From the IMG/VR virus record IMGVR_UViG_3300032296_003759: DNA of 64,000 nucleotides; one strand, written 5' to 3'. Below the pieces are notes generated by a model. That model searched no databases. It saw only the letters and a program-made list of their open reading frames with translations, and was not told where the DNA came from. Origin of the DNA: a virus (taxonomy: Duplodnaviria; Heunggongvirae; Uroviricota; Caudoviricetes). How positions within the stretch are numbered: position 1 is the stretch's first letter; the number at the start of each line of letters is the position of its first letter. A program made the translations under genes and the position numbers. Shown here in pieces: positions 62,426 through 62,990 of this stretch.

Positions 62426-62947
62426 ATGCAATTAAAGTGCAAAGGTTACCATTACCTAATAAATGGTCAAAACATCTGGCTTGAAGATAAGTTAGATGTA
62501 AACAATTTCATCTCTAAAGAGGAGTTTGAATTGGCTATTACTCCAGACAAGAATGACAATGATTATGACAAACTGGTATCTAAACTGGCTGTCCATATGG
62601 GCACTAGGAATAAGATTACTGGCAACTTTGTGGATCTGTATTTCTTTAAGAATATAGTTTCTGCAGTCATAATAATTATATTCTTGGCATCTTGTAGTTC
62701 TGGTTCAAAGCCAAAAGCTCCAGTAAACAAGGGGAAAGAATTTGTTATTGTTCCTATGGAGGAGGATAATGAAGGAAGACCTTTGTTCACTATGAAAAGA
62801 AGTGGTGATACTGCTGCATATGAATATATGTATGCAGAAGAGGTTGTTGCTTCAATGATCAGAGATACAATTGTTGTAGATGAGATGTTACATCTCTGTG
62901 ACAATCCTCTTGATGAAGATGATTGTTGGAAAAACCAGGTTAAGTAA
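62426..62947 (+). CDS. hypothetical early protein (~173 aa; start moved to the ATG at 62426, MQLKCKGYHY...), with an internal lipoprotein-type signal/lipobox (LASC)
   Basis: The A-rich leader ttcattaactaaaaaaccaattaaaATG matches the leaders of other early genes. The internal segment MGTRNK...AVIIIIFLASCSSGS resembles a lipoprotein signal peptide. Confidence 0.4.
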   Translation: MQLKCKGYHYLINGQNIWLEDKLDVNNFISKEEFELAITPDKNDNDYDKLVSKLAVHMGTRNKITGNFVDLYFFKNIVSAVIIIIFLASCSSGSKPKAPVNKGKEFVIVPMEEDNEGRPLFTMKRSGDTAAYEYMYAEEVVASMIRDTIVVDEMLHLCDNPLDEDDCWKNQVK

Positions 62948-62990
62948 ACCAGTTTGGGACATTGTGGTGGTTCGATTCCGCCACTGGTTC
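62947..62990 (+). ncRNA. tRNA-like minihelix: 7-bp acceptor stem (AACCAGT/ACTGGTT) plus canonical T-arm (GGTGG-TTCGATT-CCGCC) and discriminator C; no D or anticodon arms
   Basis: Read directly. It begins at the last base of the stop codon of the preceding early gene. Confidence 0.4.

Follow-up and report, generated by a model that had tools for sequence, protein, structure and literature searches.

The 64,000-nucleotide (nt) stretch of phage DNA analyzed here (IMG/VR virus record IMGVR_UViG_3300032296_003759, class Caudoviricetes; "the window") carries, at positions 62947-62990 of its plus strand, a 44-nt transfer RNA (tRNA)-like minihelix that consists of an acceptor-like stem and a T-arm and lies between two early genes. 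The feature is genuine and non-random; it is not a tRNA gene and is very unlikely to be a phage attachment site (attP), and it belongs to a small, clade-restricted, tRNA-derived family that is interleaved with hammerhead ribozymes. The minihelix is very probably a selected structured RNA module. As to its role, the reading that we prefer, and to which the sequence comparisons lend about an even chance, is that of a tRNA-derived, anticodon-less module similar to the t-elements of plant mitochondria, serving as intercistronic punctuation or as a 3′-end element of early transcripts. Since the family alternates with hammerheads between early genes, it is likely a cutting or end-protecting signal for early messenger RNAs (mRNAs).

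Architecture of the minihelix and known RNA classes

The element abuts the stop codon of an early gene, as the original prediction had stated, and in fact starts on it: the final A of the TAA (62945-62947) of the upstream early open reading frame (ORF) is the first base of the acceptor-like stem. The two strands of this stem, AACCAGT (62947-62953) and ACTGGTT (62983-62989), pair at seven of seven positions. Between them lie a 12-nt linker, TTGGGACATTGT (62954-62965), in place of the D and anticodon arms, and a T-arm (62966-62982) composed of GGTGG, the loop TTCGATT, and CCGCC, with the G53-C61 pair. A C occupies the discriminator position (62990) and is followed by AAT, so that no CCA is encoded. 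The acceptor-like stem, the discriminator, and the 12-nt replacement were all borne out by the sequence. The T-arm had been described as perfect; its loop and G53-C61 pair stand, but the stem falls short of this, with U·G as its middle pair. A 7-base pair (bp) acceptor stem and a 5-bp T-stem with a GTTCRANYC loop, as expected of a tRNA, are nonetheless both present.

That such an arrangement should be unlikely by chance holds for its strict form and not for a relaxed one. A strict descriptor (loop TTCRANN, 5/5 T-stem pairs with G53-C61, 7/7 acceptor pairs, a linker of 0-35 nt, both strands) gave one match in the window and matches in 5 of 1,000 dinucleotide-preserving shuffles (p ~0.005). A relaxed descriptor (6/7 acceptor and 4/5 T-stem pairs) gave ~0.7 chance matches per shuffled window; therefore, only the strict form is significant.

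Standard tools do not call the minihelix a tRNA. ARAGORN made no call at the minihelix and found in the window only a tRNA-Cys gene at 37042-37113, and the Rfam tRNA model RF00005 gave no match to the window element at E values up to 10, nor to its relatives of types B, C, and D (described below) at E values up to 5. The single Rfam match to the minihelix was a 17-nt T-arm match to the transfer-messenger RNA (tmRNA) model (11 bits, E = 0.31). A canonical tRNA gene was rejected on the negative ARAGORN and Rfam results and on the mere 12 nt between acceptor and T-arm. A tmRNA was rejected because no G3·U70 pair, tag ORF, or pseudoknots are present, ARAGORN finds none, and the Rfam match covers just 17 nt. 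A hepatitis delta virus (HDV)-like or theta ribozyme directly 3′ of the minihelix was likewise discarded, with no fitting P1/P3 layout by eye and no Rfam match.

A clade-restricted family of modules

In every recovered contig of the clade with enough upstream sequence (contigs are numbered with the prefix L), an element of the same layout lies upstream of an orthologous gene of 442-445 amino acids (aa). In type A12, AACCAGT and ACTGGTT are combined with the 12-nt linker (window, L002, L004, and L005, as well as L001 and L012, in which a G62980A substitution turns the middle T-stem pair from U·G into U-A), and in type A20 the linker is 20 nt long (AACCATGGTTGGGACATTGT), with a possible 3-bp D-like hairpin (L007, L008, and L013). 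Type B (L009, L092, and L104-L107) consists of the acceptor strand GCAGTAG, a D-like hairpin CACC-AATGG-GGTG, the bases AGTATG, a T-arm AAGGG-TTCGAAT-CCCTT, the acceptor strand CTACTGC, and a final T. A slightly degenerate copy, type B2 (L011 and L093), is also located upstream of the 442-aa gene, and types B′, C, and D follow other early ORFs (L011, L093, L009, L106, and L092). At pair 3:70, type A has C-G and type B has A-U; the discriminator varies by type between C and U, and each early region holds one to three copies.

The differences among these elements preserve the fold. Four substitutions separate the orthologous type B variants (T-stems AAGGG/CCCTT, GAGGG/CTCTC, and GAGAG/CTCTC); each of them lies in the T-stem and keeps the pairing (4/4), where pair 49:65 changes from A-U to G-C, and pair 52:62 occurs as G-C, G·U, and A-U. 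The other 47 positions of the 51-nt type B module carry no substitution. With all types aligned, 95.8% of stem cells are paired and double changes are found at 11 of the 12 pairs, a level of pairing that none of 500 shuffles and no slid register come near. GTTCGA-TC is identical in all family members. The minimum free energy (MFE) fold predicted for type B is exactly a tRNA minus its anticodon arm (z = -3.2), with none of 200 shuffles as stable. Judged from these comparisons, the pair-preserving selection expected of the t-element class is found for type B and across types.

The 51-nt module is 92-100% identical between contigs in which the adjoining 60 nt, on one side or on both, show ~50% identity, a level equal to alignment noise. 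Because the module is kept while its flanks are unrelated, it appears from sequence to be a discrete, portable unit. Three unrelated upstream ORFs (that of the window and L005, that of L007, and that of L008) join the conserved block at the 5′ acceptor strand. A DNA-level recombination site finds support here, whether as the core of an attP derived from integration into a tRNA gene, which was one reading of the original prediction, or as a hot spot for exchange of early cassettes: the 5′ acceptor strand is the exact point at which differing upstream ORFs meet the block, module copies set between unrelated flanks are identical, and the 3′ halves of tRNAs are classical att cores. The searches that bear on it speak differently. 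The 25-nt 3′ half of the minihelix had no exact match in IMG/VR. The match to a host tRNA 3′ end that the original prediction envisaged did not appear either, the 21-nt T-arm/acceptor 3′ motif GGTTCGATTCCRCCACTGGTT having no match in one genome each from 185,579 species, among which an uncultured host could be absent. As had been noted at first sight, no integrase is seen: no integrase or recombinase family was found with PHROGs or Pfam among the 25 ORFs scanned in the window, which is part of a genome, nor among six distinct ORFs of its relatives. In addition, neither a complementary 5′ strand nor substitutions that preserve pairing would be required of an att core, every copy is on the coding strand, and crAss-like phages are generally virulent. 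On the 3′ half unmatched in these collections, the absence of an integrase among the ORFs scanned, and the superfluous 5′ strand we rejected attP, and a recombination site of either kind is highly improbable.

In sequence, the 3′ half of the minihelix falls among real phage tRNAs, and its derivation from a tRNA is plausible. An 18-nt relaxed pattern met six IMG/VR loci, two of which are ordinary phage tRNAs (Val and Arg-CCT) and the others unrelated GC-rich sequence, and the tRNA-Arg(CCT) has 24 nt of T-arm and acceptor 3′ strand in common with type A. This shared stretch would also be expected if the minihelix were a phage tRNA gene in decay, stripped of its D and anticodon arms through an internal deletion and now without function. 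Such decay would fit with the commonness of tRNA genes in the early regions of these phages, with the low variation of type A, and with a natural 44-nt deletion in L006 (JGI 3300008117, ~800-830), located between two CACTG repeats, which removes the 3′ acceptor strand together with a downstream palindrome and indicates that the region tolerates loss. However, at least four sequence types are without exactly the anticodon arm and keep both stems, type B changes in the T-stem only and always preserves pairing, and the module is kept while both of its flanks are replaced; decay without function is an improbable reading.

The family is narrow in its distribution. The type B pattern had no match in IMG/VR. 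At the loci of remote homologues of the downstream gene (480 kb; 80 loci from metagenomes and 2 from metagenome-assembled genomes), minihelices were no more frequent than in shuffles; therefore, the family is confined to a narrow clade. Full-text literature searches returned no description of anticodon-less tRNA-like modules in the early operons of crAss-like or other phages, and a large survey of phage structured RNAs mentions only tRNA-overlapping motifs. Three contigs (L003, L010, and L103) end inside T-arms; these ends were judged to be assembly breaks at repeated k-mers rather than RNA ends.

Cistron boundaries, hammerheads, and proposed function

All copies are on the early-gene strand. 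About half of them overlap the upstream stop codon, which falls at element positions 5-7 or 8-10 or, in the window, at position 1; of the remaining copies, four begin 3-7 nt beyond the upstream stop and one 30 nt beyond it. The element thus has what characterizes a t-element: a non-decoding tRNA-like fold, a conserved T-arm motif, an orientation along the coding strand, and a place at a cistron boundary. CCA is encoded neither in the minihelices nor in the tRNA-Cys gene of this phage; therefore, both would use the same host 3′ pathway.

The junction preceding the minihelix is occupied by a different device. At 62343-62397 (plus strand), directly after the TAG stop of a 62-aa ORF, a descriptor matched a type I hammerhead of the U15.1-A16.1 variant (GTGTC CTGAAGA TTCTGTAAGGAT GAA TCCTGATG-TGTCTA-CATCGGGA A|GACAC) with the CUGANGA ... 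GAA core, three stems, the 15.1-16.1 pair, and H17 before the predicted cleavage site, which follows A62392; U10.1·U11.1 is present, and Rfam gave no match to this copy. The canonical hammerhead at 2756-2811 of L009 (GGTTAA CTGATGA G-ATC..GAT-C GAAA ... GGGTA|TTAACC) scored 31.4 bits with the Rfam RAGATH-1 model (E = 0.001 in a 251-nt search), under the gathering score of 56.3. Further canonical hammerheads are found 3′ of the 442-aa gene in L005, L001, and L103, with another in L106, and the U15.1-A16.1 variant is found in L009, L092, L094, and L013 as well as in the window. Stem II covaries among copies, and a conserved hairpin with the loop TTTCTA is stem III of the type I hammerheads. Descriptor matches were all on the plus strand, with none on the minus strand and none in the 480 kb of distant loci; 7 of 300 window shuffles contained matches. 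Natural U15.1-A16.1 hammerheads cleave slowly (Perreault et al., PMC3088659), and multiple hammerheads flank prophage genes, suggesting processing of long phage transcripts (PMC3088659).

A sequence ATTYATTAAY, recurrent 20-35 nt upstream of most early start codons, relates the two kinds of element. It starts 6-8 nt past the hammerhead cleavage site and 3-5 nt past the discriminator, both in type B and in the type-E element as found in L009; for the window copy, it lies 95 nt further downstream. Because ATTYATTAAY starts at a similar spacing from both, the 3′ edges of hammerhead and minihelix may be equivalent, and hammerheads at other junctions of the same operon appear, from their placement, to do an equivalent job to the minihelix.

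We tentatively propose, at somewhat below even chances, a form of tRNA punctuation in which portable modules at cistron ends are cut by host ribonuclease (RNase) P and RNase Z and are interchangeable with the hammerheads used elsewhere. In the reading that we prefer, the minihelix would be transcribed within the early plus-strand operon, with its acceptor stem stacked on the T-arm (12 bp in total), and host tRNA-maturation enzymes would recognize the acceptor/T-arm helix and the T-loop. RNase P would then cut at the 5′ edge, at or inside the stop codon; the 3′ edge, past the discriminator, would be the target of RNase Z, or of exonucleases and then the CCA-adding enzyme. The outcome would be a split between the upstream and downstream cistrons and/or a stable 3′ end resembling that of a tRNA, or else a small minihelix RNA set free. 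The RNase Z cut would mirror that of a hammerhead, with a structured 3′ end on the upstream mRNA and a fresh 5′ end downstream, and a CCA-tailed minihelix, once released, may be a stable small RNA itself. Under tRNA punctuation, the overlap of the 5′ acceptor strand with the stop codon would set folding or cleavage of the module in competition with translation of the upstream gene. A tRNA-mimic element for 3′-end processing or stability was the other reading of the original prediction, and the conserved architecture, the pair-preserving changes, the strand, the placement at ORF ends, and the hammerheads agree with it; the reading itself is one that we infer. The same applies to transcription through the minihelix, its recognition by RNase P and RNase Z, and an effect on mRNA fate; the processing mechanism involving these two enzymes may be as probable as its opposite.

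Several observations weigh against the t-element-like reading, and they concern either the window copy, the alignment, or the mechanism itself. (i) The minihelix fold of the window copy (-12.9 kcal/mol) is not its MFE fold (-13.6 kcal/mol; z = -1.45), in which the T hairpin is extended to 7 bp and the acceptor stem cut to 5 bp, with a 12-bp stack possible both ways; the predicted probability of the acceptor pairs is 0.3-0.5, and thermodynamics computed for this copy are neutral. (ii) Type A is almost invariant, and the evidence for selection on the window copy is thinner than that on its relatives; with almost no variation, it rests on four observations, namely the change between U·G and U-A, an indel of 8 nt in the linker, the mosaic junction, and the syntenic position of type B. 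(iii) Covariance models of other types do not raise the window copy above noise: with a model built from types B, C, and D, it reached 13.6 bits (E ~1.4) and ranked fourth amid noise, and a model built from type B only found B2, found A20 weakly (E = 0.6), and missed A12. (iv) The stems in the alignment of all types were excised by hand with the structure in mind, since MAFFT failed to align the 5′ strands of different types, and the types could differ in part because they come from different parental tRNAs and not through compensatory evolution. (v) Either the pairing is dispensable at least in L006, or the L006 contig is defective. (vi) A canonical RNase P cut would truncate or remove the upstream stop codon and so produce a non-stop mRNA. 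Read-through of the upstream stop codon was set aside: the frame stays open for 27 codons beyond the TAA, but by our own estimate this would happen by chance in ~14% of cases.

Two further explanations keep the structure and change what it is for. The minihelix could be a tRNA-derived hairpin of the 3′ untranslated region that acts, without tRNA-processing enzymes, as a generic protector against exonucleases or as a pause or termination signal for the RNA polymerase of phage or host, its tRNA likeness being no more than a trace of its origin. Its site between a stop codon and the next leader cassette is where such a hairpin is expected, the T hairpin can be extended to 7 bp and dominates the predicted fold, and classical terminators are absent from the early small-ORF region and seen only further downstream. 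However, a scan for terminators over 60800-64000 did not call the minihelix site, and the bases after the element, CAATGGGG, contain no U-tract, so that an intrinsic (rho-independent) terminator was rejected. A protector or terminator would, moreover, need neither a T-loop motif kept invariant nor a 7-bp outer stem kept around a long bulge. We consider this explanation rather unlikely. In the other, the module would release a small, stable tRNA-like RNA that works in trans, either as a primer or handle or as a decoy or sponge that draws off a host factor with affinity for the acceptor/T-arm half of tRNAs; the target could be a tRNA-targeting defence nuclease, a nucleotidyltransferase toxin, the CCA-adding enzyme, EF-Tu, or a synthetase. 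The module is self-contained, portable, and intact in unrelated contexts, the type B D-like hairpin, with its GG loop, could form a tRNA elbow, and countermeasures against tRNA-directed defences are common among phages. On the other hand, there are just one to three copies per early region, and no single identity set is conserved, because acceptor sequences differ between types, no G3·U70 is present, and the discriminator is C or U by type; the missing anticodon arm also excludes a decoy for anticodon nucleases. A role in trans is unlikely.

The t-element-like reading has precedents in several systems, none of which is identical to the phage element. Bacterial RNase P reportedly cleaves model substrates made of an acceptor stem plus T-arm (McClain, Guerrier-Takada and Altman 1987). 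Like such minimal substrates (pAT1) and tRNA minihelices, the phage element combines a coaxial acceptor/T helix of 12 bp with a T-loop and an unpaired 3′ end and has no D or anticodon arms; unlike these synthetic molecules, which usually end in NCCA, it has a 12- to 25-nt bulge at the junction and no CCA. Plant mitochondrial t-elements are said to have been described as tRNA-like processing signals by Hanic-Joyce in 1990. They carry GGTTCRANYCC and define mRNA ends, sometimes within reading frames (Forner 2007, PMC1920247), and they share with the phage element a non-decoding tRNA-like fold, the T-arm motif, a position at gene ends, and an unencoded CCA (PMC1920247). In the plant elements, the ends are mRNA termini generated by RNase P and RNase Z, and some overlap the frame, so that the stop is lost. 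They are organellar and their ends have been mapped, whereas the phage element, from a double-stranded DNA phage of (probably) Bacteroidota, is known from sequence, is more reduced in having no anticodon arm, and alternates with hammerheads.

As small boundary modules, the minihelices are also comparable to phage and prophage hammerheads (PMC3088659) and to the theta HDV-like ribozymes next to phage tRNAs (PMC10879173). These modules, carried by Bacteroidota and Bacillota phages, have been proposed to cut long transcripts or tRNA trailers (PMC3088659, PMC10879173). Unlike them, the minihelix has no ribozyme core and would depend on host protein or ribonucleoprotein enzymes. The use of a tRNA-like fold to set, through RNase P or RNase Z, the ends of a longer transcript is also found with mascRNA/MALAT1, the tRNA-miRNA-encoded RNAs (TMERs) of murine gammaherpesvirus 68 (MHV68), and the precursors of the P4 CI and P1 C4 RNAs; those occur in other hosts and contexts and have a cloverleaf-like or other guide structure, and the phage element differs in being intercistronic and in a lytic early operon. 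The tRNA-like domain of tmRNA and the module of YrlA (a bacterial Y RNA) resemble it as tRNA upper halves with the anticodon arm absent, and differ from it in that the phage element has no G3·U70, tag ORF, pseudoknots, or Ro-binding stem.

If the t-element-like reading is true, the minihelices would represent in a bacterial virus what tRNA punctuation is in mitochondria and t-elements are in plants, a system in which a phage borrows the tRNA-maturation machinery of its host for its early mRNAs beside autonomous, self-cleaving ribozymes. They would also provide a natural minimal substrate of 44-51 nt for the RNase P and RNase Z of Bacteroidota, explain short T-arm sequences that tRNA finders skip in phage genomes, and mark the boundaries of early-gene cassette shuffling in crAss-like phages.

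The early operon and its neighboring elements

The window has a GC content of ~30%. A minus-strand block (2267-60900) encodes the terminase, portal, major capsid, and large virion proteins, and small plus-strand ORFs are listed from ~61136 onward. The terminase shares 25-28% identity with terminases from Crassvirales phages of Bacteroides, Flavobacterium, and Cellulophaga. The minihelix sits in the plus-strand "early" operon of a divergent, uncultured crAss-like phage whose host probably belongs to the Bacteroidota. Nearly identical contigs come from freshwater metagenomes; the INPHARED phage collection contained no near-identical DNA, and a protein search of IMG/VR returned no close relatives.

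In the window, the early operon runs in the order 66-aa ORF, a minihelix-like element (61344-61387), 67-aa ORF, cassette, 135-aa ORF, cassette, 62-aa ORF, hammerhead (62343-62397), 173-aa ORF, minihelix (62947-62990), and 442-aa gene, which is followed by a hammerhead in relatives. The 442-aa gene (start 63116; length in full; phrog_8203) has homologues of 442-445 aa with 63-86% aa identity, and Pfam and PHROG annotation returned nothing for the neighboring early proteins. The ORF upstream of the minihelix is listed as 62375-62947 (190 aa), with its listed ATG (62375) inside the hammerhead; judged from the sequence context, its true start is probably the ATG at 62426, which is preceded by TTATTCATTAAC and an A-rich leader and gives 173 aa, the same call as in L005. 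The window and L001 differ at six positions across 6.7 kb ending at 63144, and a sharp mosaic boundary follows at 63145, inside the 442-aa gene, with ~170 differences in the next 850 bases.

The element at 61344-61387 (plus strand) resembles the minihelix in having a 7-bp outer stem, a 12-nt linker, and an inner hairpin placed at the 3′ strand (TCCCAAG, linker, GTGG-AGTCGTAA-CCAC, A, CTTGGGA). Its 8-nt loop, AGTCGTAA, is not a T-loop, and Rfam gave no match. A counterpart in L009 (~1460-1505) has GAGG/CCTC where the window has GTGG/CCAC, which is a compensatory change. A cassette, AACTTCTGGGCGGAGTTATAAAACCCACAAAACA, follows minihelices of three different types; it is conserved at 61390-61425 of the window (plus strand), ~2040-2075 of L009, ~2940-2975 of L011, and ~760-800 of L093, and contains a hairpin with an A-T/T-A compensatory change. 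Its UGGG loop and a downstream CCCA could possibly form a pseudoknot just upstream of the start codon.

A second cassette, GTTGTTAACCTATG-N14-17-ATT(C/T)ATTAA(C/T), occurs on the plus strand of the window at 61636-61675, 62100-62140, and 63062-63097, and at many more sites in L001, L009, L011, L092, and L093, 20-35 nt upstream of early starts. It matches neither the sigma-70 nor the Bacteroidota -33/-7 consensus and may be either an early promoter or a shared 5′ leader. The copy at 63062-63097, CTAACCTAGG ... ATTCATTTTAAAC, is the leader- or promoter-like sequence ahead of the 442-aa gene. Between it and the minihelix lies the palindrome GTACAC-n12-GTGTAC, which had been reported earlier and is present, with its coordinates corrected downward by one base to 63000-63023 (plus strand); it is kept only in the type-A lineage, and its loop, ACAACCTATC, is similar to the repeated GTTGTTAACCTATG cassette.

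A tRNA gene, a further tRNA call, and a GC-rich island complete the picture. The tRNA-Cys(GCA) gene called by ARAGORN is on the minus strand, in a gap of the structural block, with a terminator-like hairpin and a T-run ahead of it. In L009, ARAGORN called a 95-nt tRNA-Ile(AAT) with a long insert at 8761-8855, which the Rfam tRNA model did not report at E values up to 5; this phage tRNA may contain an intron or be aberrant. Between the minus- and plus-strand blocks of the window, at 60943-61112 (plus strand), the divergent region contains an island of 54% GC in this 30% GC genome, with no Rfam match; it holds the motif ACCCCCTA repeated twice, has a predicted fold with z = -2.3, and could be a leader RNA, an origin, or a promoter region.

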